From Candidatus Pacearchaeota archaeon (GTDB taxonomy: Archaea; Nanobdellota; Nanobdellia; UBA10117; JAFCGA01), in the NCBI GenBank assembly GCA_017608345.1, contig JAFCGA010000004.1:57-64056 (forward strand): DNA of 64,000 bases, read 5' to 3'. Position 1 is the stretch's first letter. Each line of letters starts with the position of its first letter. A program made the translations under genes and the position numbers. Below the pieces are notes generated by a model that worked only from the letters and a program-made list of their open reading frames with translations, was not told where the DNA came from and made no database searches. Shown in pieces: positions 32,066 through 48,319 of the stretch.

Positions 32066-32422
32066 TTAGTAGATATAGCCCTCAAATTCCAAGTCATTCG
32101 AAGTAAAATTAATAGAATAATTTCCTCTAAAGCCATTATAATTAACAATAGCGCATGCTAGTCCGATTCCTTGCTGAGAATACACGCTCTTAAGATGCGG
32201 GCACAAATCTGATTGCTGTGCATTAGCAACCGACCAAGTATTACGGTCTTGAATTGAGTTTTGAATATTTTTAAAATCCAAGTAGCTCGATTTTGTGAAT
32301 AACGTAACTGCAGCAGTATCAGTTGTCCTAAAAAAGCTAAACAGGACAAACATCGATAACGCTAGAAGCATTATCGCAACCATAAAAAACTGTGATTTTT
32401 TAGACTTCATAATTTCTCCCAT
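32066..32422 (-). CDS. Small pilin-like protein (putative class III signal peptide)
   Basis: MGEIMKSKKSQ is followed by a hydrophobic helix (FFMVAIMLLALSMFVLFSFF). It is the last gene of the minus-strand pilus-like cluster. Confidence 0.45.
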   Translation of the reverse strand: MGEIMKSKKSQFFMVAIMLLALSMFVLFSFFRTTDTAAVTLFTKSSYLDFKNIQNSIQDRNTWSVANAQQSDLCPHLKSVYSQQGIGLACAIVNYNGFRGNYSINFTSNDLEFEGYIY

Positions 32423-32527
32423 AAATATAATTTATATGATTCGTCCCAATCAGCCCTTTTATTTTTGCGAGTCTGTAACATAACTAATCCGTCCAAAAGC
32501 GTTGGCGGAAAATTTATAACTTCCATT
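32407..32527 (-). pseudogene. Remnant duplicate of the 3-prime end of the pilin-LamG gene
   Basis: The block TCTCCCATAAATATAATTTATATGATTCGT (32410-32440) recurs at 32535-32565 with a decaying match beyond. It encodes the same C-terminal peptide ...ESYKLYLWEKL* as gene 32528..33658. Confidence 0.4.
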
Positions 32528-33658
32528 TTAGAGCTTCTCCCATAAATATAATTTATATGATTCGTTCCATTGGCTGTTTCCGCGAGTGTAAGTAGTACTG
32601 ATAATATCATTATTAGTCGTTGCAGTAATAGCGGGACAATTAATACCTTGATTAACTAATCCGCTGTAATCTCGCCAAATCTCATCTGCAGTCAGAGCGC
32701 GATCAAATACCCAGAGCTCATCAAGAGTGCCATTTAGTGTAATCAACGACGCGTTATTATATCTGCCAATCATAAACGGCGCTGTATTCGTCAGACGTGG
32801 CCCGACAAAGGTATCATTTTCTCGCTCAATCCCATTAACATATATTCTAATATCTGTCCCAGATACAGTTCCCGCAACATGGCGCCATTCATTATATGGA
32901 AAATCAATTGAGCTCTGCGCAAAGTTACTCCCGCTCGCTGTCCCATTTCCTAAAAATAGCAGCGGCTTTTGAGGATCAGCCCATGAGCCTTGCGCAAAAT
33001 AATAAGGAGTTTGAGGAAATACTCCTGTGCCTTTAGAAATAATTGACGGTGAATACACCGCGCCCTTTCCTTTATCTCTTATCCATGCTACAAAACTAAG
33101 ATCTCCGACAAAATCAAAATCAGGATCATTAGTGCAATTAATCCAATCATCTACGCCATCAAAGTCTGCTCCGGAGTTAAATTTCCCCGAGCTTGTAAAC
33201 GAAGCACCATTAACAAAAGTACAATTATGTCCATTCCCAGAGGAATCACAGATATCTTTTCCATCCGCACAAGAATTGTCTGCTCCTTCATCCATATTCC
33301 ACATAGCCACAGTATTTGCATCCATCACTAACCCTGCGGAGGAATTTATAATATAGCAATCAGAATCACGATAGTATTGTACTTCGAAGCCAACTGTGTT
33401 TGGTAAGCTAGCTTTAAGATGCTCGTCTAGCTCTTCGAATGCCCTTCCGTCAGTCATTATCCTATCGAGAGCTCCACTCGCATCGAGATTGTTGAGTATA
33501 TTCCACGCTTCGTCACGTAGCGTAGTTAATTCGCTCTTTGTGTCTGTGGCTTGATCAGAATACAAGAACCCAACAACAAACACCAATACAATTATCGCAG
33601 TAATAATTATCTCGATGAAATACACGAACCCGGTCTTATCTTCAAACATCCTTACCAT
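32528..33658 (-). CDS. Pilin-like protein fused to a LamG/concanavalin-like domain
   Basis: The N-terminal TM segment (FVYFIEIIITAIIVLVFVVGFLY) is followed by a LamG domain (NEWRHVAGTVSG...LNGTLDELWVFDRALTADEIW). Confidence 0.6.
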   Translation of the reverse strand: MVRMFEDKTGFVYFIEIIITAIIVLVFVVGFLYSDQATDTKSELTTLRDEAWNILNNLDASGALDRIMTDGRAFEELDEHLKASLPNTVGFEVQYYRDSDCYIINSSAGLVMDANTVAMWNMDEGADNSCADGKDICDSSGNGHNCTFVNGASFTSSGKFNSGADFDGVDDWINCTNDPDFDFVGDLSFVAWIRDKGKGAVYSPSIISKGTGVFPQTPYYFAQGSWADPQKPLLFLGNGTASGSNFAQSSIDFPYNEWRHVAGTVSGTDIRIYVNGIERENDTFVGPRLTNTAPFMIGRYNNASLITLNGTLDELWVFDRALTADEIWRDYSGLVNQGINCPAITATTNNDIISTTYTRGNSQWNESYKLYLWEKL

Positions 33659-34524
33659 ACTTTAAGATTAATTTCCGCGGGGAAAGCCTCCGAATTGCTA
33701 TAAATAATTCTTCTCCGAGATACTCCGCAAAGCGGCTTGCTCAACAAATGCTCTGTCGATCCAAATGTGGAATATACATCAGTATGATTTCCAAAATATA
33801 AAGGATAAGTTTTACCAGTGTCTAATCCGATTTGATTAACTGCAAGTATATAGATTAATGAGGAAGCATTAATCGATGAAATGGACGCGCAATCATGGTC
33901 TCCGCTGCTAAAAGTCCAATTAAGAGAAACTTCTGCACCTCCGCTTGTGTTTTTTATTCCAAGTGCTTCTCCAGCTTCAAGAGCGCCTGCCGGACAGTTA
34001 GAAATCACTGGATTCGCGTATGGAAAAAACAAAGTCAGCTTAAGTTTAGATAAAGTATCTGCACTTCCAGCAGAAATATTAATCGCGTCTGAGGATCGAA
34101 CAATAAAAACTTTTGGAGAGCTGTCATTTGGATATTGCGGAACAGGATCAGTAGTTAAATTAAAAGCGTAAATATTATACGCTAAATTAAATGATCGATT
34201 AAGCGCGATTGCGGTGGAAATATTATAATAACCTCTCGTAGTCATTGCTTGCCACTTTGAATAATTTACACCTGCGCTTGAAGAGTCAGAGCTAGCCAGC
34301 CCCAATCGCCTTAGCGATCCCGCAGATTCCCACGTGCTAGGATCTCCGGGAAAATCTAAAAAGGCAAGAGCTGCGCTTTCAGCTTCAGAACATAATTCCA
34401 ATTCTCTAGTGCTAGAAATCTCCTCAGGAAGCCTATCGAAATAAGCGAACAAAAGATACATTACGATTATCACAAATAGAAGTATAGCAATTATATATTC
34501 AACTAAGGATTGTGCACGCTTCAT
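33652..34524 (-). CDS. Type IV pilin-like protein (class III signal peptide)
   Basis: MKRAQSLVEYIIAILLFVIIVMYLLF is a prepilin-like N-terminus with Glu at about +5. Confidence 0.55.
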   Translation of the reverse strand: MKRAQSLVEYIIAILLFVIIVMYLLFAYFDRLPEEISSTRELELCSEAESAALAFLDFPGDPSTWESAGSLRRLGLASSDSSSAGVNYSKWQAMTTRGYYNISTAIALNRSFNLAYNIYAFNLTTDPVPQYPNDSSPKVFIVRSSDAINISAGSADTLSKLKLTLFFPYANPVISNCPAGALEAGEALGIKNTSGGAEVSLNWTFSSGDHDCASISSINASSLIYILAVNQIGLDTGKTYPLYFGNHTDVYSTFGSTEHLLSKPLCGVSRRRIIYSNSEAFPAEINLKVW

Positions 34525-34558
34525 AGATTAATAATAGCCTCAGAGATAAAAAAGATTA

Positions 34559-36589
34559 TTATTTTCTAGACTTTTTTGCTTGCTTATTTTGCTTCTTTGG
34601 TCTCATTTGCCCGTAGATTATGAACAGGATTGCCGCTAAGCTGATGAGAATTAAAGCAATATTTAATGGCGTGAAGAATGACTTCTTACGAATAGTCTGC
34701 TGGACTATTGATTCTGGCTCGTGGGTTAGTTCTGGAGCTACTGCTATCTCTTCTTCTCCAGTTATTGCAAAGTAACTAAAGCCTTCGGTGTTAGCTTCGA
34801 AAGTTAGGTGTTCTTCATCCTCAATTACTATGCTCGTTCTTAGAGCAGTCCATTGATTATTTACATATCTATACATAAGGATTGAATCCTTATTTACGTT
34901 GTTTTGGGAGAGCCAGGAAGCTGGAACCTTGAAAGTGATTTTTCCGTTTTGGATGTTAGTTGTTGCTAGATTGTTAGTTGATATGCTTAAGTATTGGTAT
35001 ACTTTTCCTTCAAGAACTTGGACTGCTTCGGGCTTACCTGAAAGACTTCTTACAGTAATCATAGCGTTCTTTGCAGCTTCCCTTGTTGTGATTTCTACAT
35101 TTGAGACAGCTATTTCAGGATCTTTTAGATTTATGGAGACTGGTGTGTTGCCGGAGACAGTTCCTAAGATTTGTGAAGTTTCTGCGATGGTTGTTACATC
35201 TGAATCTGAGATTTTGGAGGTAGCGCTGCTTCTGCCGCCCGAGTGGACTACTGTAGTGGGTGTGGTGTCCACATATAGCGTTTGTGCGGTTGTAGTAGCT
35301 CTGTTTCCGTATTGATCTGTACAATTAATGTACCAATGGTAAGTCATATCATCGAATAAACCTACTTGTGTGAAAGTTTGGGTTGTTGACTTAGTGATTG
35401 AGGTGTCTGTTTGTTCGATATTGTTATCGATTATTAGAGAGCAGTTTGAGACAGTTGAATCGTCGGTTACTGAGTAAGTGAAGCTAACTGTTGAGGAGGT
35501 TTCTGTTGCTAGGTTTGCTGGGGTGAGAAGGGTTACTATCGGATCCGTAGATTCAGAAGCTGCTGCTATTCCTGTACCTAGCTGATAAACATAACCATCA
35601 TCACTGCCTATATATACAAAGCCGCCAGCTACTGCTGGAGAAGGAAATACATTACTACCGGTGGAGAAGTTAGCGATCAGTTGAGAAACATTGGAGGCAT
35701 TTAATTGATAAACTTGGTCATCGAAGCTGCCGATATATACAAAGCCGCCAGCTACTGCTGGAGAAGAATGCACATTATTACCTGTGGAGAAATTAGCAAT
35801 CTTCTGAGAAATATTAGAGGCATTTAATTGATACACTTGATCATCATCACTGCCTATATATACGAAGCCTCCAGCTACTGCTGGAGAAGACAGTACATTA
35901 TTGCCTGTGGAGAAGTTGGCTATTTTTTGAGAGATATTAGAAGCATTTAGTTGATACACTTGATCATCTCGACTGCCGATATATACGAAGCCTCCAGCTA
36001 CTGCTGGAGAAGACTGCACACGATCGCCGGTGGAGAAGTTGGCTATTTTTTGAGAGATATTAGAAGCATTTAGTTGATACACTTGATTATCATCACTGCC
36101 GATATATACGAAGCCTCCAGCTACTGCTGGAGAAGAACGCACATCATCGCCGGTGGAGAAGTTGGCTATTTTTTGAGAGATATTAGAAGCATTTAGTTGA
36201 TACACTTGATTATCCCAGCTGCCAATGTATACAAAGCCGCCAGCTACTGCAGGAGAAGACTGCACATCGTTACCTGTAGCAAAATTAGCAAACTGAATAC
36301 TAATATTGCTCGGAGCTGTATTATTAGTATACCCTGTATTATTTAAGTCATAGCGGAACATAGTCCAATTTTCAGCACTACTACTTGCCATTACTCCAAA
36401 CCTCTGTTCAGAAGTTTCGAAAGATCGATCAACAGCGATCCTAACTGGCACACTAGGCCTAAACTCCGCTTCCGACTTAGCAAACATGCCAGTAATATGA
36501 CCTACAGTTGAGAATAAGATAATTGCAATAGTTAATACTAAAGTAATAACTAAAATTTGATCAGTTTTGAGCTGCTTGCGCCGAGCCAT
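34559..36589 (-). CDS. Membrane-anchored surface protein with PQQ-like beta-propeller repeats and Ig-like domains. It shares the C-terminal anchor module of the giant protein
   Basis: There are six or more repeats of SSPAVAGGFVYIGS.D.QVYQLNASNISQKIANFSTG. The C-terminus reads RYVNNQWTALRTS...EGFSYFAITG, then an acidic linker, a TM helix and a Lys/Arg-rich tail. Confidence 0.7.
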   Translation of the reverse strand: MARRKQLKTDQILVITLVLTIAIILFSTVGHITGMFAKSEAEFRPSVPVRIAVDRSFETSEQRFGVMASSSAENWTMFRYDLNNTGYTNNTAPSNISIQFANFATGNDVQSSPAVAGGFVYIGSWDNQVYQLNASNISQKIANFSTGDDVRSSPAVAGGFVYIGSDDNQVYQLNASNISQKIANFSTGDRVQSSPAVAGGFVYIGSRDDQVYQLNASNISQKIANFSTGNNVLSSPAVAGGFVYIGSDDDQVYQLNASNISQKIANFSTGNNVHSSPAVAGGFVYIGSFDDQVYQLNASNVSQLIANFSTGSNVFPSPAVAGGFVYIGSDDGYVYQLGTGIAAASESTDPIVTLLTPANLATETSSTVSFTYSVTDDSTVSNCSLIIDNNIEQTDTSITKSTTQTFTQVGLFDDMTYHWYINCTDQYGNRATTTAQTLYVDTTPTTVVHSGGRSSATSKISDSDVTTIAETSQILGTVSGNTPVSINLKDPEIAVSNVEITTREAAKNAMITVRSLSGKPEAVQVLEGKVYQYLSISTNNLATTNIQNGKITFKVPASWLSQNNVNKDSILMYRYVNNQWTALRTSIVIEDEEHLTFEANTEGFSYFAITGEEEIAVAPELTHEPESIVQQTIRKKSFFTPLNIALILISLAAILFIIYGQMRPKKQNKQAKKSRK

Positions 36590-36630
36590 AAGAATAAATT
36601 GCTGAGCTAGTATTTAACAATTACTACTCG

Positions 36631-37806
36631 CTATTTAACAATTATATCTTCGGTTACTGTCTCTGTTTCTTTCTTATATGTAGCAGTTATTATTATACTA
36701 TATTTCCCGCCAGTCATCGGAGCTTCGATTATGTCTTTAAACTCTCCAACATTATCCGTGAATAGCTTATGCGTTTCGCCAGTTGGAGTGAGTATATCCA
36801 CGGTTGCGCCTACTGCTGCTGAAGATTCAAAGAATACTTTTCCAGCAATATTTATCTTCGCACCGGGATTCGGGCTCGGTGGATATATTGCTACCTCCAG
36901 ATTCAGCTGAGACGGGATTATGAATATTGAGAAGAAGAAAATGCCTACTGCAAACATGACTACGATGTGCTTTACACCGGCGATTAATTTCTCCTCTGCA
37001 ATTACTCCGGCAATCAATCCTGCGCAAATTGACTCTACAATAGTCATAATTAAAAACAGATTCTTAAAGTAGCCGACAGTCATTTGACCGCCTTCAATCC
37101 CCTGAAGCGATATTCCGCTAAATATACCTAGCTTTTGGATGAAAATAATCGGAGCGAGGATTTTATAGACACCAATTATTACACCAATAAAAATAAAGTA
37201 GATTAAGTACATTACAATTATTTGCTGATGCATAATTGATTTTTTCTCAGCCTCTAATTGTTTTAATATGCTAACATTATCAGATAACGATCCTAGAGTA
37301 GTTTTAATATCGCCGCCGCTGTGATATGCTTCAAGAATAATATTGTTTATTCGCGTTATTAATGCACTCCGAGACAGAGTTTTAGTAAATCTATTCCACG
37401 CTTTTGGGAAGGGCACATCCCAAGATAACCAAATATTTAATTTGTCAACATAACTCGATAATACATTGTATTTTGTCTTAGCACAGGTATCAACTGCTTG
37501 CGGAATCGTCATCCCAGCAGATACAGACTGCGACATATCTCTCAAGAAATTAGGATAATTATTCTCAGCTTTCTTTATCTCCTGAAATTCTAAGAAATTA
37601 AAAATCAGATAAGGAAGAGCAACAATAATTAGCCCCAGTGCAAATAGAGTAATTATTACTGTTGTGTTAACTTCTAGCACATACGAAATTATTGCAGTTA
37701 TAAATGGTATTGGGAGGGTTAGAAGTAGCACAAATACTTTCCTTTTTCTAAGCCCAAGTACTTCTTTTTCCCAAAATGATTTCTTGAATATATCTATTCC
37801 GACCAT
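36631..37806 (-). CDS. TadC/FlaJ-like (GspF-family) polytopic membrane protein with an extra C-terminal extracellular beta-sandwich domain
   Basis: It has multiple TM helices and a T2SS-F-like organisation. It overlaps the upstream paralog by 13 nt. Confidence 0.6.
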   Translation of the reverse strand: MVGIDIFKKSFWEKEVLGLRKRKVFVLLLTLPIPFITAIISYVLEVNTTVIITLFALGLIIVALPYLIFNFLEFQEIKKAENNYPNFLRDMSQSVSAGMTIPQAVDTCAKTKYNVLSSYVDKLNIWLSWDVPFPKAWNRFTKTLSRSALITRINNIILEAYHSGGDIKTTLGSLSDNVSILKQLEAEKKSIMHQQIIVMYLIYFIFIGVIIGVYKILAPIIFIQKLGIFSGISLQGIEGGQMTVGYFKNLFLIMTIVESICAGLIAGVIAEEKLIAGVKHIVVMFAVGIFFFSIFIIPSQLNLEVAIYPPSPNPGAKINIAGKVFFESSAAVGATVDILTPTGETHKLFTDNVGEFKDIIEAPMTGGKYSIIITATYKKETETVTEDIIVK

Positions 37807-38711
37807 GGTGATAAACTCTTAATTAATATTATGAATAGGGCAGTTAAGCCAGGAAGCCCGGCAAAGATGACGAGGTATTGTATAAATTTAACCATTGCTA
37901 CGGACATGCCACCCACAGTTACCATTAATGAGGAGATTATTATAAAAAAGACTATTCCGACTATAACTAAAGTAATATACATATTCATAAATAGCGAGAG
38001 GATATTACTGAAATCTGAGAGTTTTCGCTTATAATCTGCGATGAATCCTTTTGATTTCTCTTCCAAGTACTTTCCAATATCTCCGCCAGCAGTTATTGAG
38101 TTTTTTAGACCCGCTAGCAATTCAGTCCAGTTTAATGATGGTGAGCGTTTCATGGCTCGCTCTAGTGCAGATGGCAAATCTAATCCAAGAACATGAATAT
38201 CACTGCTGATTTTATCTGCTTCTTCAGATACAACGTTATAATGCTTAAATCGAGATAGCATCTTAAACATTGTTTGCGGCGGTAATCCTGAACGAATAAT
38301 AGTGGATAAGTATAAAGTCGCAAAAGCAAGACTATTGTCTAATTTAGCGCGGCGGTCGCTAATCATAAAATTAGGATATAAATAAATAATTACTCCAACA
38401 AGTATGCTAACTAAAATTGCTATCATTAGATAGACAAATATGAGGTGTGCTTTGATTCCATAAATTGCTGATCCGAAAGCTAACAGAAAAACAAACGTTA
38501 CAAATAAAGTCAGAAATGAGGAAAATATAATGAATGAGCCATACTTAATTCCAGTGGTACTTATTCGCGCTATCCTTAACTTCTTGTCGAAATTATCATA
38601 AATCGGGAGCTTTTTAGCAACCGAAGAAAATATAGCATTTGAGAAAGAATAGATATCTTGCCCTTCGAATTTCTTTACATCCTTGTCTTTCTTTTTTTTA
38701 GCTGCCTTCAT
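37794..38711 (-). CDS. TadB/FlaJ-like (GspF-family) polytopic membrane protein
   Basis: It has TM helices flanking a cytoplasmic domain and lies immediately downstream of the secretion ATPase. Confidence 0.6.
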   Translation of the reverse strand: MKAAKKKKDKDVKKFEGQDIYSFSNAIFSSVAKKLPIYDNFDKKLRIARISTTGIKYGSFIIFSSFLTLFVTFVFLLAFGSAIYGIKAHLIFVYLMIAILVSILVGVIIYLYPNFMISDRRAKLDNSLAFATLYLSTIIRSGLPPQTMFKMLSRFKHYNVVSEEADKISSDIHVLGLDLPSALERAMKRSPSLNWTELLAGLKNSITAGGDIGKYLEEKSKGFIADYKRKLSDFSNILSLFMNMYITLVIVGIVFFIIISSLMVTVGGMSVAMVKFIQYLVIFAGLPGLTALFIILIKSLSPWSE

Positions 38712-38712
38712 A

Positions 38713-40428
38713 TCATTTTCCCATATAATTCGCTAGCTGCCTAGGATTACGATAGTACATATTAATAAACTGAGCAACTTGGCTGAACTGGTAGTTTCCT
38801 TTTGATTTTAGCCAATCTAAAATATTTACTCTTCTTAGAATTTCATCTTGTACATCTTTATCATTCCATCCTTGCCGCTCTGCTAACTGCTTAAGTATAT
38901 AACTATCTGCAGGAATAAATGTATCCTTAACTGGGTCTCTCTTGAATACAACGTGAGTATTAAGTGACTTATTTTTGTTATTATAGCCCTCTATTTCAAT
39001 GACACTGCCAACACGTCGGATAAACTTGCCTTCCTTCTTAACTTTCTCAAGAAATACAATAATATCGAGATTCTCCAGCAAGGATAACGGTAAATTTATT
39101 GGTCGTGTAGTAAGACGATCAATAATCGCTCCAACAGTATCTGCGTGCAAGGTTGATAATCCCGGATGTCCTGTACTCATTGCATGGAAAAGTACGTTTG
39201 CTTCTCTGCCCCTAACCTCGCCGACAATTAGATAATCTGGACGCTGCCTAAGTGCAGCTTTAAGGAGGGTATCCATATCCACTTGACCGTATCCGCCAGG
39301 GCCTACGCCAGCTCTCGTTACTTGTGGCATCCAATTTATATTCATAAGTTGAATTTCCGCGGTGTCTTCGATAGAAACTATCTTCAGATTTGGGTCAATG
39401 AACATCGCTAGCACATTTAGAAAAGTCGTTTTACCTGTAGCAGTTGTTCCAGAGATTAGGATGGATTTCTCCTTCTCAATAGCAAGCCAGAGGTATGCAA
39501 GTATCATCGAATCAACAGTTCCAAAGTTCATAAGATCAACAGGAGTAAGCGGAGTTCTGAAGAATTTTCTTATTGTAAAATTAGATCCCTTACGCGCGAT
39601 GTCTGTGCCATAAGTTATCTGAACTCTTGATCCGTCAGGTAAGCTACCATCCATTAGCGGCTCTGCAACGGAAATAGTCCGCTTGCATTTCTGAGCTAAT
39701 TTAATTGCAAAGGAATCTAGGTCTTCTCGCTCCGTGAATTTTACATTTGTCGGGATTTCTCCATATATGGGGTTTCTATGAAACACAAATATTGGTAAAT
39801 TTACGCCGTCACAAGAAATATCCTCGATGTTTGGATCATGAACTAGCGCATCTATTTGATCAAGTCCGATTACCCGCCGAAATATATAATATTTTGCGGT
39901 TAATATTTCCTGATTTGTGAGTCTTGCACCGAGTTCTTTCCATATTTTCTCTATTTTTTTATCAATATAAGTGTATACTGCATCTTTCGCGCGTAATTTA
40001 TTAAAGTTAATTTCTAAGCTATCATGAAGTTCCTCAAGCGTTCGGTGAATCAGTTTTTGCAGTTTCGGACTTATCTGCGGCTCAATTAGATTATAAATCA
40101 ATTGATTATTCCGAGCATCGAATTTGATTCTAGCATGGGCTAGCGGAATTAGCTGATCTTTAACACGCAGAGTAGTCAAAGGATAAGTTTCATCAACAGT
40201 TCTTAATTTCTCATGATAGTCAATCTTACTAGATACTACTCCTTCTCGACTAGCTGGAATCGCGATTCTAGAAACTACCTGAGTGGTATTTTCTTCGACA
40301 GGTGGAGCAGTCTTGACTACCCTCTGCTTGGGTTGCTCTTCTTTTTTCGGCGGCGCTTCTAACTTAGGACTATCTGATAACTTATTTAATTTCGATTTTA
40401 TTTGCTTGAGAAATTCTTTTCTACGCAT
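38713..40428 (-). CDS. FlaI/TadA/VirB11-family type IV pilus/archaellum assembly ATPase
   Basis: Walker A (GTTATGKTT), Walker B and the His box are present, and the 571-aa protein has an N-terminal extension. Confidence 0.9.
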   Translation of the reverse strand: MRRKEFLKQIKSKLNKLSDSPKLEAPPKKEEQPKQRVVKTAPPVEENTTQVVSRIAIPASREGVVSSKIDYHEKLRTVDETYPLTTLRVKDQLIPLAHARIKFDARNNQLIYNLIEPQISPKLQKLIHRTLEELHDSLEINFNKLRAKDAVYTYIDKKIEKIWKELGARLTNQEILTAKYYIFRRVIGLDQIDALVHDPNIEDISCDGVNLPIFVFHRNPIYGEIPTNVKFTEREDLDSFAIKLAQKCKRTISVAEPLMDGSLPDGSRVQITYGTDIARKGSNFTIRKFFRTPLTPVDLMNFGTVDSMILAYLWLAIEKEKSILISGTTATGKTTFLNVLAMFIDPNLKIVSIEDTAEIQLMNINWMPQVTRAGVGPGGYGQVDMDTLLKAALRQRPDYLIVGEVRGREANVLFHAMSTGHPGLSTLHADTVGAIIDRLTTRPINLPLSLLENLDIIVFLEKVKKEGKFIRRVGSVIEIEGYNNKNKSLNTHVVFKRDPVKDTFIPADSYILKQLAERQGWNDKDVQDEILRRVNILDWLKSKGNYQFSQVAQFINMYYRNPRQLANYMGK

Positions 40429-40469
40429 AAAAATAGTAATGCTTAACTTATTTATAAGGTTTATAGCTG

Positions 40470-40937
40470 TTAGGAGATTCTTATTGTATTATTCGCGGGT
40501 AAATAAGTCAGCTCGCATTCTCCAGCACTGGATTGAACCTGACCGTCGACGCTTATGTTCCACCAGTAAACTGGCACAGTTATCACTTCAGAATCTGATC
40601 CGAAAGTTTGGAAAACCAGATCGTTGCTATTTCCATAGATTATATATTCATTCGGGCCTAATCTCGAAGGGAGCTTTAGCTTTCGAGTTAATGTGCTAGT
40701 TGTAGTATTGCTTGCTTCGACAATCGCTCGAATCTCAAGAATCTTAGTTTTCATGCTAGCTGCGATTGCATTTACATGATACTGGTTAAATTCAGTAGTG
40801 CTGTCTTCAAGAATATGATTAGATAGCGTGTATATCGCAAAAAGAAACACTAGGCTAAATAACGCGAGAAAGCTAAAGTAAAGTACACTTACTTGTGCAT
40901 TTCTCTGTTTTGTGCGTTGTATTGTAGAATTTTGCAT
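40470..40937 (-). CDS. Pilin-like protein
   Basis: The N-terminus ...KQRNAQVSVLYFSFLALFSLVFLFAIY is a class-III-like signal and TM segment. Confidence 0.5.
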   Translation of the reverse strand: MQNSTIQRTKQRNAQVSVLYFSFLALFSLVFLFAIYTLSNHILEDSTTEFNQYHVNAIAASMKTKILEIRAIVEASNTTTSTLTRKLKLPSRLGPNEYIIYGNSNDLVFQTFGSDSEVITVPVYWWNISVDGQVQSSAGECELTYLPANNTIRIS

Positions 40938-40938
40938 C

Positions 40939-41547
40939 TTAATTCATGTCTACAGTTATGATTTGTCGGTAACTCGTTGTGCAGCTTCCGATTGCAGAGG
41001 TATTTGTCTCTTTGAAAGTTAAAAGTACCGTATGACTCCCAGAACCGACCATCGCATTATCTCCTGGTGTTAAGAAAATACCATGACACTCATTATTAGC
41101 TGTGTCATTAAGGTTTATGTATTTCAGTTCTAATTCTATGCTGCCTTTCTCAATTAAACAACCTGCTTCATCAGTTCCAAGAGTTCCGAACAGTGTCGAA
41201 TCCATGCAAGGTCCGGATTCATTTTTATTGCCTGCTAATACTCTTTCACTACTTACTAATTGATCTGGCAAGTCCATATATGCGGAATAAGTTATTGTTC
41301 GATCATTTGCTAAATATAATTGTCCCTTCTTAATGTCAAAAGGAACAGTTCTCTGAGATTTCTCATTTGCTACATCTCGAATAGCATTGTTTAAAGCTAA
41401 CATTCTGTTTTCTATTCTTTTAACTTCAGCCACGTTGTTAATTTTATCTATCTGCGGCTTAGCCCAGAAGAAGCTTATGCTGACGATTGCTATTACAATT
41501 AATGTTAATAAGACGAATCCGACTACTTCTGCCTGGGCTTTTCTCAT
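40939..41547 (-). CDS. Pilin-like protein
   Basis: MRKAQAEVVGFVLLTLIVIAIVSISFFW is a class III signal peptide-like N-terminus. Confidence 0.55.
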   Translation of the reverse strand: MRKAQAEVVGFVLLTLIVIAIVSISFFWAKPQIDKINNVAEVKRIENRMLALNNAIRDVANEKSQRTVPFDIKKGQLYLANDRTITYSAYMDLPDQLVSSERVLAGNKNESGPCMDSTLFGTLGTDEAGCLIEKGSIELELKYINLNDTANNECHGIFLTPGDNAMVGSGSHTVLLTFKETNTSAIGSCTTSYRQIITVDMN

Positions 41548-41582
41548 GACTAATTAAAAGAAGTTGTAGTATATAAAATTGA

Positions 41583-43055
41583 TTAAGAGAGAATCCACGT
41601 TTCTCCATTACGACTACTTGCGTCTTGACCACCAAATAAAAGTATTTTATTGGTATTCTGTATAGACGCCATTGAATGAAAATACCTTCCGTCAGGTAAA
41701 TTCGATAGTTTTATTTCAGTCCAGCCATTAGAACTAACATCATATAGCCAAGTGTCATCGGCATAAGTTCCACTAGCATCTCCGCCAAATACTACTATTT
41801 TATCTGTATTGGATATAGTAGCTAATTGATGACCTTGCCTTTCAGTAACTGAGTATGCGGGATTTTTGTTGACCCAGATATTATCACTTAAGTCATATAT
41901 CCACGTCTCAGCATCATAACCCCAACTATCTATACCGCCAAATAACAAAATCTTATCCTCAGAATATATTACTGACATTGCATGTGCATATCTAGCTCCA
42001 GGACTTGTACTTGGAGCCATATTAGTCCAGATGTTGTCGCTCAAGTCATATATCCACGTGCCATTACAGCTATTTGAACCTGAACCGTCGCAGTTGCCGC
42101 TTCCATCTGAGCCGCCAAAAAGAATTATTTTGTCATCGCCGTAAACCGTCGCAAGCGCGGATCCCCCTCTAGCAGTTAGACCGATAGCGGTGGTTCCTTG
42201 AGTCCAGGTGTTGTCGCTTAAGTCATATATCCAAGTTCCATTACATCGACTATTTCCTGAACCGTCGCAGTTGCCGCTTCCATCTCGTCCCCCGAAGAAA
42301 AGTAATTTATCTGTTGAGTAAATATTTGCCGCAGCACCTTGGTATCTTGCACTAAATCCAACAGCAGTAGTTCCTTGGGTCCAGGCATTATCACTTAAAT
42401 CATAAATCCAAGTTCCATTACATAGACTACTTCCTGAGCCATCGCAGTTGCCGCTTGCGTCATCCCCACCAAATAACACTATTTTATCATCAGCAGACAT
42501 TGAAGCCATTGAATGATACATTCTAGCGCTAGGTTTAGTTGCGATAATCTTCTCTTCCCAAACATTCGATTGTATACCTGCAATAAATGCCGTATACACA
42601 GAATCATCGCCAAATGCGAAGTAGGCATCATATTTCATACCTTTTTCTAAATTAGCGCAATCTGTACCACCCAAATCAAGATTGATTAATTTAATTTCTC
42701 CCACAGATAAGTCAAACGGACAATTATCACACGTATCGCTATTGAACGAAGCCGTACATGAACCGCCCTGATTGGAAAGTATAACCAAATCGCCAATGTC
42801 CCCAAGAGCTTTTAATTCTCTGGTTCCCGCGTTCTGAATAACGATCTCCAAAGTAGCAAGCTTTAACTTGTGCTCTATTGTTTTTATCTCAATATTCCCT
42901 GCAGCTTTATCTAGCACTTGAGAATGAGATCTCTCGGTGCTCGCTTGAAGCTCACCTTGAACTTTTATTGCCCAATAATAAGCCGCAGTAGCTATAGCAA
43001 TAGTAATCATAATTACTAAGATTAGCGCAAGAATAAGACTTACTCCTTTCTTCAT
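41583..43055 (-). CDS. Type IV pilin fused to a Kelch-type beta-propeller (paralog 4)
   Basis: MKKGVSLILALILVIMITIAIATAAYYWAIKVQGELQ (KG cleavage-site-like) is followed by six to seven repeats of FGG.DGSGNCDGSG...CNGTWIYDLSDN.WT. Confidence 0.75.
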   Translation of the reverse strand: MKKGVSLILALILVIMITIAIATAAYYWAIKVQGELQASTERSHSQVLDKAAGNIEIKTIEHKLKLATLEIVIQNAGTRELKALGDIGDLVILSNQGGSCTASFNSDTCDNCPFDLSVGEIKLINLDLGGTDCANLEKGMKYDAYFAFGDDSVYTAFIAGIQSNVWEEKIIATKPSARMYHSMASMSADDKIVLFGGDDASGNCDGSGSSLCNGTWIYDLSDNAWTQGTTAVGFSARYQGAAANIYSTDKLLFFGGRDGSGNCDGSGNSRCNGTWIYDLSDNTWTQGTTAIGLTARGGSALATVYGDDKIILFGGSDGSGNCDGSGSNSCNGTWIYDLSDNIWTNMAPSTSPGARYAHAMSVIYSEDKILLFGGIDSWGYDAETWIYDLSDNIWVNKNPAYSVTERQGHQLATISNTDKIVVFGGDASGTYADDTWLYDVSSNGWTEIKLSNLPDGRYFHSMASIQNTNKILLFGGQDASSRNGETWILS

Positions 43056-43095
43056 AATTAAATTAGAGAATACATATATATAAAACTACTCCGGG

Positions 43096-44526
43096 TCAAT
43101 AATATATCCAAGTATCATTTATGTCCTCGATGATATATTTGCCGCCAAAAAATAGTACTTGCTCTGAGTCGCCGATTTCAGTTAGAGAATGACTATCCCT
43201 ATTGCTAGGGCTATTTATGGGTGATTTCTTTGTCCAAGTATTATCACTTAAGTCGTAAATCCAGGTTCCACCTTCGAATTGCTCGGTATATCTCCCGCAA
43301 AACATAACTATTTTATCTGTACTGTAAAGTGAAGCCATATCATGCTCATAAATTGGTCCAGGCCCATGGCTTAGCTTTCGTGTCCAAGTATCATCGCTAA
43401 GATCATAGACCCAAGTATCTTGATAAATTCCTGCGCCATAGCCACCGTGTAAAAGAACCTTATCCTCGCTAGACATAAAAGTCATAGCGTGATCCGTTCT
43501 AGCAATTAAAGAAGTAGGAGTAGTTCCTTGGATCCACGTATTGTCGCTTAGATCATATATCCAAGTTCCATTGCAATAATTACTCCCCGAGCCATCACAA
43601 TTGCCACTAACAAAATCCTCTCCACCAAATAACAAGACTTTATCTGTATTGTATATCCTTGCCATAGAGTGCCCTCGCCTAGCTCCGGGATTTACTCCTG
43701 GAAGCATATTTGTCCAGGTGTTGTCGCTTAGATCATATATCCAAGTTTCTGCATTTAGCGTACCGTCCCAGCCACCAAACATTAAAACTTTATCATTATC
43801 ATAAATCATTGCACTTGCGTGTTTCGAGCGATTAGATGGCGAAGTGGTTACATTCTTCTGAGTCCAACTATCTTCGCTTAGATCATACATCCAAGTATCT
43901 TGGTAATAAGGACTTCCAGCACAATTACTACAATCTCCACCAAAAAGAACGACCTTATCTGTTCGATATATATTTGCAAAACTATGGTCGCTTCTAATCG
44001 AGGGAGCATTAGCTGGATTCTTTTTTTCCCAAACATTAGTTTTTGAGATCGGAACAAAATTAGTCTGAGCATGTACTTCAGAGGATCCAAAATAAATAGA
44101 ATATTCCGTTCCTATTTCTAAGTTAGCGCAATCAGTACCGCCAAATAATAGATTCATAGTAATTATCTCATTAACATCTAAAGCTATAGGGCAAACATCG
44201 CAAGTAGAAGAATTAAACGGGAGACTACAAGAAAAGCTGCCTGAAGAGATAACTAATGTATCTCCAGCATCACCAATCTGCTCAATCTTTCTGCCTCCAG
44301 AATTTTCAAGGACTATTTTAACATTGTCAGTATTAATATTATAATTAATATTAACTATATTTAATTCTCCAACTACTCTATCTGAAAATTTATCCTGACT
44401 TTCATCACCGGCTCCTTGCATCTGTCCTTGAATCTTCATTATCCAATAAAAAGCTGATGCGGAGATAGCTAGAGTCATCATAATTATCAAAACCAATGCA
44501 ATAACATTACTTATAGCTCGCTTCAT
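43096..44526 (-). CDS. Type IV pilin fused to a Kelch-type beta-propeller (paralog 3)
   Basis: The N-terminus is MKRAISNVIALVLIIMMTLAISASAFYWIMKIQGQMQ, followed by repeats of VLLFGG...TWIYDLSDNTWT. Confidence 0.75.
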   Translation of the reverse strand: MKRAISNVIALVLIIMMTLAISASAFYWIMKIQGQMQGAGDESQDKFSDRVVGELNIVNINYNINTDNVKIVLENSGGRKIEQIGDAGDTLVISSGSFSCSLPFNSSTCDVCPIALDVNEIITMNLLFGGTDCANLEIGTEYSIYFGSSEVHAQTNFVPISKTNVWEKKNPANAPSIRSDHSFANIYRTDKVVLFGGDCSNCAGSPYYQDTWMYDLSEDSWTQKNVTTSPSNRSKHASAMIYDNDKVLMFGGWDGTLNAETWIYDLSDNTWTNMLPGVNPGARRGHSMARIYNTDKVLLFGGEDFVSGNCDGSGSNYCNGTWIYDLSDNTWIQGTTPTSLIARTDHAMTFMSSEDKVLLHGGYGAGIYQDTWVYDLSDDTWTRKLSHGPGPIYEHDMASLYSTDKIVMFCGRYTEQFEGGTWIYDLSDNTWTKKSPINSPSNRDSHSLTEIGDSEQVLFFGGKYIIEDINDTWIYY

Positions 44527-44558
44527 AGTTTAAATATAATTCAAAGATATTTAAGGGT

Positions 44559-45995
44559 TTAGGAATAAATCCAAGTGTCGTCAGTTCTACCTGCAGCAGT
44601 CTGCCCGCCAAATAATAAAATACTCTCTGTTTCGTCGATTGTAGCCATTGCATGGCTGTACCTTGCAAGAGGATACTTAGGGATACTCTTTCGAGTCCAA
44701 TAATTACGACTATAATCATAGATCCAAGTCTCACTATTACTAGGACCATCCCATCCCCCAAAGAGCATATTTTCATCTGCTCCATCGATTGTAGCCATTG
44801 AATAATCTAATCTTGCACTTGGACTACTTGGGGGGATCATTTGCGTCCATGCATTATCGCTATAGTCATACACCCACGTAAACCCACAAAGATTAGATCC
44901 AGAGCCCTCACAGGGGAAAGTACCAAATCCGCCAAGTAGTAAGATTTTGTCGGTTCCATCGATTGTAGCCATTGCATGTCGCTCTCTCGCAATTGGACTA
45001 CTCGCAGGAGTTATATTTATCCAAAAATTATCGCTATAGTCATAAATCCAAGTTTCATCATCCAACGCACCATCATTTCCACCGAATAATACAAATTTAT
45101 CAGTTTTATATATTGCAGTTAGAGCAGGGTAATTTCTTGCACTCGGACTACTCGCGGGATTCATTTGTGTCCATGCATTATCGCTATAGTCATAAATCCA
45201 AGTCTCATTATTCCGCGTGCCATTATAACCACCAAATAATAATACTTTATCTGTATTATATAACTTAGAACTTGCGAATTGGTCTCGTGCAGTAGGATGA
45301 ACTGCTGGATTCATATTTATCCAATTATTATCACTTACATCAAATACCCACGTTCCACTGCAGAAGCTACTTAATGAACCATCACAATTACCGCTTCCAT
45401 CCCATCCCCCAAATAGAACGACTTTATGGATTCCACTTATCGTCGCCATTGAGTGGCGTATTCTGGCACTAGGCTTATTCGGTGGATTCAGTTGTACCCA
45501 TTGATTACTTTTCGTATCTGCTACAAACGAAGTATATACTCTATCTGAACCTAATGAGAAGTAAGCATTATATTGCATTCCTCGCCTTAAATCCTGACAA
45601 GCAGACCCATCAAAATCAATAGTTATAGATTTTACTGCACCCACACCAAGGTCAAAGGGGCATTCCGCGCAATAAGTAGAATTAAAACCAAGCGTGCAAG
45701 AATGCACATCGCTAGCAATTGTAAGCAAATCTCCGATATCTCCGATTCCTTTGAGCTCTCTAGTACCAATATTTTGAATAACTAGCTGAATATTTGTAAG
45801 AGTTGAACTATGTTTTAGACTTTTTACTTCAATTTCTCCACTGACGTCAGATAGTGTCTCTATTTGAGATCGCTCTGCTCCTGCTTGAACTTCTCCCTGA
45901 ATCTTTATACTCCAATAATAAGTCGAGGCGGCTACTACAATTACTATCATTATTACTAAAACCATCGCAAGAATTATACTTACACCCCGCTTCAT
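44559..45995 (-). CDS. Type IV pilin fused to a Kelch-type beta-propeller (paralog 2)
   Basis: The N-terminus is MKRGVSIILAMVLVIMIVIVVAASTYYWSIKIQGEVQ, followed by repeats of LLFGG...ETWIYDYSDN.WT. Confidence 0.75.
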   Translation of the reverse strand: MKRGVSIILAMVLVIMIVIVVAASTYYWSIKIQGEVQAGAERSQIETLSDVSGEIEVKSLKHSSTLTNIQLVIQNIGTRELKGIGDIGDLLTIASDVHSCTLGFNSTYCAECPFDLGVGAVKSITIDFDGSACQDLRRGMQYNAYFSLGSDRVYTSFVADTKSNQWVQLNPPNKPSARIRHSMATISGIHKVVLFGGWDGSGNCDGSLSSFCSGTWVFDVSDNNWINMNPAVHPTARDQFASSKLYNTDKVLLFGGYNGTRNNETWIYDYSDNAWTQMNPASSPSARNYPALTAIYKTDKFVLFGGNDGALDDETWIYDYSDNFWINITPASSPIARERHAMATIDGTDKILLLGGFGTFPCEGSGSNLCGFTWVYDYSDNAWTQMIPPSSPSARLDYSMATIDGADENMLFGGWDGPSNSETWIYDYSRNYWTRKSIPKYPLARYSHAMATIDETESILLFGGQTAAGRTDDTWIYS

Positions 45996-46042
45996 AATTT
46001 AGTTAGGTTCTAGAATTATTTAAGAGTTGCTCTTCACCGATA

Positions 46043-47473
46043 TCAAACATAGATCCAAGTTTCATCACTCTTATTCCCAGTATATCCGCCGAAGAGTAGA
46101 ACTTTATCTGTTCCATCAATAGAAGTCATAGCATGAAGTTCTCTATCTTTTGGTTTGTCTCTCGGAACCTTTAGACTCCAGGTAGAACCACTATAATCAT
46201 ATAGCCAGGTCTCATCATCTCGAGTATTTCCAGAAAGTCCACTGAAAAGTAAGATTTTGTCTGTTCCGTCGATTGTAGCCATTGCATGATTTTGTCTACC
46301 TCTCGGCCGGATAGCTGTATTGACTTGAGTCCATGTATTGTCACTTAAATCATATACCCACGTTTCATCTAAATATCCGGAAGCAGGACCATTTCCGCCA
46401 AATAAGAGTATTTTATCTGTTCCGTCGATTGTGGCCATTGCATGGGCTTGTCTAGCACTTGGGCTAATTGCGGGAGTTACATTATACCAATTATTATCTG
46501 TATAATTATAAACCCAAGTCTCATCATTCTCAGTAAACCCTGGGTTCTGTCCGCCGAAGAGCAATATTTTATCTGTTCCGTCGATTGTGGCCATTGCATG
46601 GTAATCTCGTATACTTGGACTGCTTGCTGGAATCATTAAATTCCACGTATTAGCACTTAAATCATATAACCAGGTACCGTTGCAGTAAGAATTACCAGAT
46701 CCATCACAGTTTCCGCTTCCATCGAATCCGCCGAAGAGCAATATTTTATCTATCCCGTCAATTGTAGCTATCGAATGACCATACCGAAGACTAGGAGCTA
46801 CTAAGAGTGATAGATTTGTCCAGTTATTTTCACTGTGATCATATATCCACGTCTCATTAACGTAAGACGCACCAGGATTACCACCAAATAAAAGAACTTT
46901 ATCTGTTCCATCTATTGCAGCCATTTTATGTGTATATCTTCCCGTAGGACTATTGCGCGGAGTCATTAAAGTCCAGGAATCATAAATAGCAACCGGAACA
47001 AACGAGGTTTTAGCACTACTATCAGATAAAGCAAAGTATGCACTATACTCAAATCCTTCCCGTAAATTAGAACAGTCAGAACCAATAAAATCTAAGCTTA
47101 GTTTTCTAATCTCTCCAACTTCTAAATCAAACGGACAACTATCACAAGCTGAGGAATCAAAAGAAATATCACAAGAGAATCCTGGCTTAGAAATAACAAT
47201 TGTATCTCCAACAGAGCCGATCCGCTCTATTAATCTACTCCCTGAATTTTCCATGACTATTCTAGCAGTATCAGTATTAACATTATACTGAATATCAACG
47301 ATACTTAGCTCTCCAGTCACCTGCCTTCTTATCCCCGCTTGAGCCTCACTGCTACCCGCATACATCTGCCCCTGAATCTTCATTATCCAATAAAACGCTG
47401 ACGCCGCAATTGCTAGCGTCATCATTATGATAAGAACTAAAGAAATAACCATACTAACTCCGCGTTTATTCAT
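46043..47473 (-). CDS. Type IV pilin fused to a Kelch-type beta-propeller (paralog 1)
   Basis: The N-terminus is MNKRGVSMVISLVLIIMMTLAIAASAFYWIMKIQGQMY, followed by repeats of AMATIDGTDKILLFGG...ETWVYD.SDN.W. Confidence 0.75.
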   Translation of the reverse strand: MNKRGVSMVISLVLIIMMTLAIAASAFYWIMKIQGQMYAGSSEAQAGIRRQVTGELSIVDIQYNVNTDTARIVMENSGSRLIERIGSVGDTIVISKPGFSCDISFDSSACDSCPFDLEVGEIRKLSLDFIGSDCSNLREGFEYSAYFALSDSSAKTSFVPVAIYDSWTLMTPRNSPTGRYTHKMAAIDGTDKVLLFGGNPGASYVNETWIYDHSENNWTNLSLLVAPSLRYGHSIATIDGIDKILLFGGFDGSGNCDGSGNSYCNGTWLYDLSANTWNLMIPASSPSIRDYHAMATIDGTDKILLFGGQNPGFTENDETWVYNYTDNNWYNVTPAISPSARQAHAMATIDGTDKILLFGGNGPASGYLDETWVYDLSDNTWTQVNTAIRPRGRQNHAMATIDGTDKILLFSGLSGNTRDDETWLYDYSGSTWSLKVPRDKPKDRELHAMTSIDGTDKVLLFGGYTGNKSDETWIYV

Positions 47474-47520
47474 ACTATCCTTTCACCACAGAAATATATA
47501 AGATTTTGCTTAGAATAGTT

Positions 47521-47665: not shown

Positions 47666-48319
47666 ATGAGGAAGAAAGACAGCAAAAAGACAACTAAACT
47701 TATGGGAATATTTATTGTCGTAATCATGGCTGGCTCGATATTAGGAGTAATTGTATATAATTTAGGCGAAGATAAAGAAGAAAAATTACCAGATAATGCT
47801 TTCAAATACGAAGGCTACACATTTCATGAAACTTCTGATGGTTTCTTCGGAACTTTTGCGATGATTAATGGAAAAGAAACTCCGGTGTTATTCAGAGCAG
47901 ATCCTAGAAATTTATCAGACATATATGTAACCCCTGATGCAGTTAAACGACTTCTAGACTCAAAAAAAGCTTACGTATCATTTAATCCAAATCAAGAAGA
48001 TCTAAGCAAAGTTGGAATTGCTGCATTTCAGATATCTAGATTACTAAATACACTCGGAATTCCTACTACTGGCGCATATTCTGAAGATGCTGATCCAGTT
48101 GATGAAAATGTGCCGATTCGCAGGTGTAAAGATTCGCTGGAGCAGAGACCGGTTATTATGCTAGAAATCGGAGAAGAAACTAGAATAACTTCTGGTGATT
48201 GTATCTACGTCAGAGGTAAAGATTATGCTGAATTAATTCTAGCTGCTGACAAACTCGGAATGCACTTGGTCGGAATCAAGATCGGAGAAGAAAATAAAAC
48301 ATTACAGATACAAATTTAA
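47666..48319 (+). CDS. Hypothetical N-terminally anchored protein
   Basis: The 217-aa ORF has an N-terminal TM helix after a Lys-rich segment. Confidence 0.5.
   Translation: MRKKDSKKTTKLMGIFIVVIMAGSILGVIVYNLGEDKEEKLPDNAFKYEGYTFHETSDGFFGTFAMINGKETPVLFRADPRNLSDIYVTPDAVKRLLDSKKAYVSFNPNQEDLSKVGIAAFQISRLLNTLGIPTTGAYSEDADPVDENVPIRRCKDSLEQRPVIMLEIGEETRITSGDCIYVRGKDYAELILAADKLGMHLVGIKIGEENKTLQIQI

Follow-up and report, generated by a model that had tools for sequence, protein, structure and literature searches.

DPANN archaea need physical contact with their hosts, and how these hosts are recognised and held is largely unknown. Could a pilus of such an archaeon carry its adhesive domains on the pilins themselves? 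The question is raised by a gene cluster in a contig from a Candidatus Pacearchaeota archaeon (JAFCGA010000004.1 of assembly GCA_017608345.1, positions 57 to 64,056); this whole stretch of 64,000 nucleotides (nt) is called the window below. An earlier note, made from the letters of the window, had drawn a co-directional minus-strand cluster at 32066-47473, and 13 open reading frames (ORFs) are found there, all on the minus strand and with intergenic gaps of -13 to +105 nt. In the order of transcription they are K1, K2, K3, K4, S5, S6, the ATPase, platform 1, platform 2, a PQQ protein of 676 amino acids (aa), P290, the LamG (laminin G) protein and S118, that is, four Kelch-fused pilins, two small pilin-like proteins, an ATPase, two T2SSF proteins, a PQQ surface protein and three more pilin-like proteins, one of which carries a LamG domain. 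We find that the cluster encodes a type IV pilus (type IV filament) system and belongs to a DPANN archaeon, and that K1 to K4 each consist of a whole archaeal pilin followed by a Kelch propeller. Their display on the pilus for adhesion is the reading that we think probable.

The four Kelch-fused genes are the following, where a slash marks the cleavage position of the class III signal and A3 is our profile of the family:

46043-47473, minus strand: K1, modular pilin; signal MNKRG/VS, alpha1 helix and 4-Cys beta-sandwich at aa 1-165, predicted six-bladed Kelch propeller at aa 166-476; Kelch 2e-57, TIGR02537 22.0 bits, A3 profile 4e-50.
44559-45995, minus strand: K2, modular pilin; signal MKRG/VS, predicted six-bladed Kelch propeller; Kelch 6e-43, A3 profile 2e-48, N-terminal domain grouping with those of L081c and L082b.
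43096-44526, minus strand: K3, modular pilin; signal MKRA/IS, predicted six-bladed Kelch propeller; Kelch 1e-48, TIGR02537 25.2 bits, A3 profile 9e-51.
41583-43055, minus strand: K4, modular pilin; signal MKKG/VS, predicted six-bladed Kelch propeller with Cys loops on 3 blades; Kelch 2e-48, TIGR02537 20.5 bits, structure model and fold matches.

The first ~165 aa of K1 to K4 are a complete archaeal pilin; signal model, homology, position and fold agree on this. The NCBIfam model for class III signals, TIGR02537, has a curated cutoff of 20 bits, and the scores of K1, K3 and K4 all lie above it. An exhaustive search of 1.84 billion representative proteins with a profile of the K1-K4 N-terminal domain (N-domain) gave 325 relatives at E <= 1e-3, and most of the top 150 relatives listed are 140-190 aa long. 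The members of this family that carry a name are called 'archaellin/type IV pilin N-terminal domain-containing protein' at NCBI and come from Nanohaloarchaea, Aenigmarchaeota or unclassified archaea. The consensus N-terminus of the family is M..KKGITPIIAVILLLMMTVAAAGAAFFW....Q, the relatives mostly read KKGITPIIA...W....Q, and K1 to K4 align in register; a cleavage context of [KR]-[GA] followed by a hydrophobic helix is conserved throughout the family. Residues 1-165 of the Kelch proteins are homologous to stand-alone pilins with E-values down to 1e-61, and the module is full-size with all four Cys conserved. The stand-alone family members sit directly upstream of an S5-like gene and the ATPase gene in syntenic loci (L002, L013 and others; L002 has three of them in tandem at 7040-8551). 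The predicted fold of the N-terminal part of K4, a long helix and a beta-sandwich, has solved archaeal pilins and archaellins as its best matches. Thus the view of the earlier note that these N-termini are of the class III type, and not ordinary Sec signals or membrane anchors, is borne out, and nine is a fair count for its 'at least nine' such proteins: a basic N-terminus followed by a hydrophobic stretch occurs in nine proteins of the cluster and elsewhere in the 64 kilobases (kb) in only a few unrelated ORFs. Two N-domain profile scans of metagenome_contigs found no relatives of the window family; the patterns were narrow, and the source contigs evidently lie outside that collection.

The part from residue 166 to the end is, on a confident structure model, a closed six-bladed Kelch propeller. 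Pfam Kelch propeller families match K1 to K4 with E-values of 6e-43 to 2e-57, and each protein has six blades of 47-60 aa. The two-Cys loop GSGNCDGSG..CNGTW is found in one blade of K1, in two blades each of K2 and K3, and in three of K4. The full-length AlphaFold2 (AF2) model of K4 has a predicted local distance difference test (pLDDT) score of 90.7 and a predicted TM-score (pTM) of 0.73, and it is laid out as a helix (2-49), a sandwich (55-158), a linker of ~7 residues and strands in six repeating groups (166-490). Foldseek places the K4 propeller with the Kelch domains of LZTR1 and KLHDC2 (E ~1e-21; target TM-scores 0.8-0.85). The proposal of four fusions of about 480 aa between a pilin N-terminus and a Cys-rich Kelch-type beta-propeller therefore stands, since Pfam, the model and the blade map agree on it and the fold search returns Kelch domains. 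In Kelch propellers the loop after the 'FGG' strand generally lies on the ligand-binding face. These loops are the most variable segments in K1 to K4, and the variable, partly disulfide-stapled loops probably form the binding face. Blades and paralogues are 60-83% identical at the DNA level; they are old diverged copies and no assembly artefact.

How common is such a fusion? It is rare. Among the best 150 of the 325 N-domain relatives the only Kelch fusions are those of the window itself and three others (P0005, P0006 and P0007). A search with full-length K4 gave the same picture, with only the Kelch-pilins of the window and P0005-P0007 covering the whole protein and the other Kelch matches covering about two thirds of it, the propeller. 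The top 120 matches of a broader family profile are all 103-188 aa long. P0005-P0007 are encoded on short contigs from other samples (L081, L082 and L083). On L081 two Kelch-pilins are followed by a stand-alone pilin of 165 aa, on L082 one Kelch-pilin is followed by a stand-alone pilin of 169 aa, and on L083 two Kelch-pilins are followed by an S5 homologue (E 6e-50), which is the arrangement of the window. Four diverged paralogues in the window and the Kelch-pilins on these three contigs show that the fusion is genuine and has been kept.

The N-domains fall into three subclades in a neighbour-joining tree, and within these subclades the fused forms are interleaved with the stand-alone ones; K2 and K4 lie with two stand-alone pilins, L081c and L082b, and not with the other Kelch-pilins. 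This interleaving implies that the Kelch graft may well have been gained or lost more than once in a small clade, on a tree that is drawn without support values. The tree of the Kelch domains, with non-pilin Kelch proteins included, is star-like at 42-53% identity and uninformative on the origin of the graft. Grafts of other kinds are also seen in the pilin family (P0035, P0052, P0064, P0119 and P0009-P0013), namely DUF2341, a BNR-like propeller and an immunoglobulin (Ig)-like domain. The BNR-like propeller is inserted inside the pilin domain and is accompanied by a long Cys-rich tail, giving proteins of 571 and 816 aa; the Ig-like graft is ~130 aa, rich in Cys and N-x-T, and occurs in a group of ~290-aa proteins. 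All in all, the pilin family is a modular one.

What machinery could handle these pilins? The earlier note had named a FlaI/TadA ATPase and a TadB/TadC-like pair, and Pfam agrees, with T2SSE in one gene and T2SSF in two:

38713-40428, minus strand: assembly ATPase of the FlaI/PilB/VirB11 family; T2SSE 1.4e-33, PilB3_C, FlaI model 422 bits (cutoff 550).
37794-38711, minus strand: platform protein 1, T2SSF/TadB-like and polytopic; T2SSF 4e-14, 5 transmembrane (TM)-like segments, 69 homologues adjoining ATPases.
36631-37806, minus strand: platform protein 2, T2SSF/TadC-like, with a beta-rich C-terminal extension of ~90 aa; T2SSF 3.5e-12, 6 TM-like segments, 66 homologues.

The ATPase matches 37 NCBIfam secretion-ATPase models. 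A scan of one genome per species gave 84 loci with a related ATPase, and the closest ATPases, 50-59% identical, are all from DPANN (Woese-, Pace-, Parv-, Undin-, Nano-, Aenigm- and Micrarchaeota, Haiyanarchaeum and Altiarchaeota). The gene order conserved in DPANN is one to three pilins of 125-190 aa, an S5-like protein, sometimes a ~145-aa 'KGQ' protein, the ATPase, two T2SSF proteins and three proteins of fixed N-terminal classes, and the locus of the window matches this order gene for gene. An archaellum was considered and rejected: the FlaI score is below its cutoff, the platform is divided between two genes, FlaH, FlaF/G and above-threshold Arch_flagellin are lacking, and ArlF reaches only 15-23 bits against a cutoff of 110. 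On the N-domains of K1 to K4, too, Arch_flagellin of Pfam stays below its threshold.

Makarova et al. (2016; PMC4858521) describe one ATPase with a split platform for their clade 1 and in part for clade 2. Sivabalasarma and Albers (2026, preprint 10.64898/2026.04.22.720090) name this arrangement System 1 and report it from methanogens, Thermococcales and DPANN; the Epd pilus of Methanococcus maripaludis is an example. On its gene arrangement, one ATPase and a split platform, we call the locus no more than System-1-like. Common to the window and to clade 1/System 1 are the single ATPase, the two TadC/T2SSF genes, class III minor pilins of which many have Q at +1, and adhesin-like proteins of the lectin or DUF2341 type. 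The locus differs from them in having neither an EppA/EpdA peptidase nor a MinD/FleN ATPase. Also, the major Epd pilin is ~70 aa long and has no globular domain, whereas the pilins of the window have a globular beta-sandwich and no short Epd-type pilin was seen there.

Some details of the machinery and of related loci may be recorded here. The last ~90 aa of platform protein 2 (GKVFFESSAAVGATVDILTPTGETHKLFTDNVGEF) are beta-rich and probably extracellular; its DPANN homologues have a similar length, 366-385 aa, and the extension may be conserved. Among the species representatives L011, a Pacearchaeota metagenome-assembled genome (JAFCGI010000001.1), comes closest by the similarity of six cluster proteins. 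Its orthologous pilus ATPase (9944-12919) is 991 aa long and has an insertion of ~430 aa between the equivalents of residues 407-419 of the window ATPase, with an intein-like look. At 7129-8872 of L011 three genes for ~170-180 aa proteins stand in tandem beside archaeal-type pilins. The N-termini of these proteins, KKAFT[IL][IM]EL, are in the style of bacterial prepilins; if the cut is before Phe, Glu comes to lie at +5. In L003, L010, L013, L014, L017 and L080 a conserved cytosolic protein of ~150-180 aa with the motif EEFEIIPVNPIRRLEK is encoded directly upstream of the pilins. A thermosome-like gene is found immediately before it in L010, L017 and L080 and at an equivalent position in L002 and L011; neither of the two genes adjoins the locus of the window.

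The other pilin-like proteins are:

40939-41547, minus strand: S5, minor-pilin-like, MRKA/QAEVV...FFWAKPQIDK, in the slot between pilins and ATPase; 20 DPANN homologues in the same position, an L083 homologue (6e-50), weak DUF7289.
40470-40937, minus strand: S6, small protein with the class III-like N-terminus QRNA/QVSV; placed by position and N-terminus only, without a family match; the slot holds 'KGQ' proteins of ~140-150 aa in several DPANN loci.
33652-34524, minus strand: P290, minor-pilin-like, MKRA/QSLVEY with Q at +1 and E at +5, in the first slot after the platform; 8 DPANN homologues, motif.
32528-33658, minus strand: LamG protein, minor-pilin-like, 376 aa, DKTG/FVYFIE, in the second slot after the platform; C-terminal Laminin_G_3 6e-24, motif.
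32066-32422, minus strand: S118, short 'QFF' class, KSKKS/QFFMV, in the third slot after the platform; positional motif, L011 homologue 5e-9.

In all five a short basic leader precedes a hydrophobic stretch, and most of them are without a family match. Their class III-type character, also proposed before, is supported by motifs that are conserved position by position across the DPANN loci: K[GAS]/Q..VV...W[GA].P.I[QD]K at the S5 position, [KR][AG]/Q...[ED] with the acidic residue at +5 at the P290 position, [GA]/[FY]....E at that of the LamG protein and [AS]/QFF at that of S118; the conserved marks are a Q at +1, an acidic +5/+6 position or QFF. The counterparts of S118 in other loci are 128-1337 aa long. 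The slot motif together with the Laminin_G_3 match makes 32528-33658 the pilin-LamG fusion that had been suspected. LamG grafts recur in other loci: L079 encodes two such proteins, one of 717 aa with two LamG domains and one of 843 aa with DUF2341 and LamG, and L011 encodes one of 552 aa. These recurrent LamG and DUF2341 grafts fit the DUF2341 'PilY-like' adhesins described for such loci (PMC4858521). For the LamG protein the Tat-fimbriae (Tafi), which are twin-arginine translocation (Tat)-dependent fimbriae of haloarchaea, were tried and rejected, since the TafC model scores 49 bits against a cutoff of 410 and the similarity is confined to the LamG-type domain.

TATA-like boxes were found at seven of the 13 cluster genes, where the 8-mer starts 29-31 nt before the ATG, compared to 1.1% of random sites:

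47495-47502, minus strand: box of K1.
46017-46024, minus strand: box of K2.
44548-44555, minus strand: box of K3.
43078-43085, minus strand: box of K4.
41571-41578, minus strand: box of S5.
40451-40458, minus strand: box of the ATPase.
34546-34553, minus strand: box of P290.

The boxes of K1 to K4 are at -29/-30. Boxes so placed suggest that the transcripts are leaderless and that every Kelch-pilin gene is transcribed from a promoter of its own.

To what extent is this already known? Bacterial modular pilins act as adhesins; Streptococcus sanguinis PilB is a pilin with a von Willebrand factor A (vWA) domain and PilC a pilin with a concanavalin A-like lectin domain (Raynaud et al., 2021; PMC8179133). 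The proteins of the window resemble them in having a class III pilin module, a short linker and a domain which is not specific to pilus biology and which mediates binding, and the LamG protein parallels PilC. They differ in that the carrier is archaeal, with a TIGR02537-type signal and an archaellin-like beta-sandwich and not of the IPR012902 type, in that the pilin module is full-size, and in that all four of the four pilin-slot genes are fused and not one minor pilin. Raynaud et al. define modular pilins operationally by the bacterial motif IPR012902; K1 to K4 are modular pilins in their sense through the archaeal counterpart TIGR02537, with the pilin at aa 1-~160 and Kelch from aa 166 to the end. 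In the catalogue of these authors three proteins have the architecture IPR012902-PF13418-PF13418-PF13415, which is the bacterial pilin motif with Kelch repeats, and none of the three was studied (PMC8179133).

Two more systems should be compared. The PilY1/PilC tip adhesins of bacterial type IVa pili also put a beta-propeller on a type IV pilus for adhesion and vary in their added modules, but PilY1 is no pilin, it rides on a minor-pilin complex and its propeller (IPR008707) is unrelated to Kelch, whereas the propellers of the window are covalently part of the pilin. In the bindosome (Bas) of Sulfolobales a class III signal likewise delivers functional extracellular domains to a type IV filament machinery; its cargo is ATP-binding cassette (ABC)-transporter solute-binding proteins encoded beside their transporters, unlike the Kelch domains on a whole pilin inside the machinery locus found here. 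For archaea the 2026 survey (preprint 10.64898/2026.04.22.720090) proposes that such machineries are functionalised by functional proteins which bear a class III signal; it mentions neither Kelch nor propellers. No paper was found when the literature was searched for Kelch combined with 'class III signal peptide'. The earlier note held that Kelch-pilin fusions are not a characterised class of pilins. Uncharacterised they are, but their novelty was overstated, as the bacterial pilin-Kelch architecture is catalogued and LamG grafts recur in DPANN. The system class, the principle of a domain on a pilin, the common LamG grafts and the listed bacterial pilin-Kelch architecture were thus known already; what is new is that the scaffold which bears the Kelch graft is an archaeal pilin, that every pilin-slot gene has such a graft and that, as the N-domain tree suggests, it was gained and lost in a patchy way.

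From these parts we infer cleavage, assembly and adhesion as follows. The precursors of K1 to K4 would insert into the membrane, and a prepilin peptidase of the PibD/EppA type, with its gene outside the window, would cut them after [KR]-[GA]. Their alpha1 helices would then be polymerised into a filament by the ATPase and both platform proteins, and the propellers would be exposed on this filament and bind a ligand, glycan or protein, on the host cell or on a particle. The four paralogues, each with its own putative promoter, could provide alternative specificities. The five other class III-type proteins would be the priming, capping or tip minor-pilin set, to which one of them adds a LamG lectin-type domain. 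By analogy with the bacterial PilB and PilC the propellers and the LamG domain would be the binding modules. We think it rather probable that a DPANN type IV pilus displays Kelch-fused modular pilins for adhesion.

It should be noted that several observations weigh against this. TIGR02537 was not reported for K2, which by the A3 profile is a clear paralogue of K1, K3 and K4. K1 and K3 score only 10.8-11.3 bits with Pilin_N of Pfam (PF07790) against a cutoff of 25.2, and K2 and K4 give no score at all; because of these scores the four are not filed under PF07790. The nearest relatives of the Kelch domains are uncharacterised secreted proteins. No match to a prepilin peptidase (Peptidase_A24 and other families) was found among the window ORFs of >=150 aa, and no multi-TM candidate for a dedicated one (PibD/FlaK/EppA) was seen in the 64-kb window, a negative which the earlier note had reported as well and which refers to the window and not to the genome. 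A stand-alone pilin of the K1-K4 N-domain family is also lacking in the 64 kb. With both of these lacking, 'complete', as the earlier note called the locus, is too strong a word. Finally, when S. sanguinis PilB was modelled in a filament its bulky module on a short linker clashed with its neighbours in the filament body, and only a position at the tip was compatible (PMC8179133); the linker of K4, with ~7 residues, is likewise short.

Could the Kelch proteins then be ordinary membrane-anchored or Sec-secreted surface proteins which adjoin a pilus locus by chance? The low Pilin_N scores and the lack of a peptidase in the window would fit with this, but we regard it as very improbable, since three of the four pass the TIGR02537 cutoff, residues 1-165 are homologous to stand-alone pilins, the fold matches are archaeal pilins and archaellins, and the slot is conserved in syntenic loci. 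A short pseudopilus like the bindosome, which holds the Kelch domains at the cell surface for the capture of nutrients such as sugars and not for adhesion, has somewhat more in its favour. Binding proteins with class III signals are well known from Sulfolobales and have been proposed to occur widely, DPANN archaea scavenge metabolites, and the source annotation of some relatives of the Kelch domain is 'N-acetylneuraminic acid mutarotase'. However, the BasE model reaches 199 bits against a cutoff of 1000, family searches found no ABC transporter or solute-binding protein in or beside the cluster, the fused N-terminal part is a whole pilin with its beta-sandwich and thus more than a signal and a helix, and the locus is syntenic with loci for ordinary pilins. 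We consider this reading unlikely.

A more serious competitor concerns the place of the Kelch-pilins in the filament. They might be the major subunits, so that the whole filament body is made of Kelch-fused pilins and sheathed in propellers as a polyvalent binding fibre in which the paralogues are interchangeable or mixed. That all four pilin-slot genes are fused, with no stand-alone member in the 64 kb, speaks for this, as do the grouping of the K2 and K4 N-domains with those of stand-alone pilins, the full-size module with its four Cys kept, the separate promoter suggested for each gene and the large grafts or inserts which other members of the family tolerate. If it were true, four interchangeable and independently promoted subunits would let an ultra-small episymbiotic archaeon switch or broaden the host surface that it grips, and the interleaving in the tree would mean rapid gain and loss of a graft on the major subunit itself. 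Against it are the stand-alone pilins retained beside the Kelch-pilins on L081 and L082, the short linker with the precedent of the PilB clash, and the fact that in archaea the gene of the major pilin often lies apart from the machinery locus (PMC4858521). We regard the sheathed body as possible but the less probable arrangement. For the adhesive pilus we slightly favour Kelch-pilins that are located at the tip or interspersed in the filament, while the bulk subunit would be a stand-alone pilin encoded elsewhere; the pilins kept next to the Kelch-pilins on L081 and L082 support such a tip or sparse placement.

For the question of how DPANN archaea hold a host, the locus offers four propellers and one LamG domain as candidate adhesins that are physically coupled to the machinery of a pilus. 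With it the bacterial strategy of a pilin that bears a grafted binding module is extended to the pilins of archaea. That every pilin-slot gene is grafted is unusual, and it is relevant to the question whether each subunit of a type IV filament can bear a large domain. The propellers should be expressible alone for binding screens, which makes the idea directly testable.

The one gene of the cluster which has no counterpart in the conserved order lies between platform 2 and P290:

34559-36589, minus strand: PQQ-type beta-propeller surface protein, 676 aa, with an N-terminal signal or anchor and a C-terminal module followed by a TM anchor; PQQ_2 2e-17.

Its C-terminal 336 aa match residues 7803-8157 of a giant ORF of 8211 aa with 27% identity (E 3e-24), so the anchor module shared with the giant protein, as claimed before, is confirmed. 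The protein is no pilin: it has TM segments at both ends, with an anchor at its C-terminus, it fits none of the conserved pilin-like classes, and a homologue was found in only 1 of 80 related loci. To us it looks like a lineage-specific surface protein, anchored at its C-terminus, that has been inserted into the locus. The giant ORF (204-24839, plus strand) has at least 21 Laminin_G_3 domains and shares with the PQQ protein a C-terminal module of ~350 aa, a TM helix and a basic tail; its N-terminus resembles the end of a LamG domain, and the true start may be upstream. Judged by their adjacency alone, the giant LamG protein and the PQQ protein would suit a region that serves surface interactions.

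Divergent from K1 are genes for a single-TM protein (47666-48319, plus strand) and a family 2 (GT2) glycosyltransferase (48361-49596, plus strand), the latter with its own TATA-like box. K1 to K4 have 3-7 N-x-S/T sequons per protein, nearly all within the propeller, and because of these sequons and the divergent GT2 gene the pilins may be glycosylated.

The G+C content is about 39%, and the genes flanking the cluster are archaeal (FEN-1, TruD, Hel308 domain 4, Cdc48). No tRNA genes and no Rfam families at the gathering score were found in the window (1-64000). A Hel308-type helicase is divided between two genes ~25 kb apart on opposite strands. Its N-terminal half (30897-32054, minus strand; DEAD and Helicase_C) ends with ...HQMTGRAGRP directly after motif VI. 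The C-terminal half (56889-57953, plus strand) begins with MTEKYGEAISIA, contains archaeal helicase domain 4 and a helix-hairpin-helix (HhH) motif, and has its own TATA-like box at -29.

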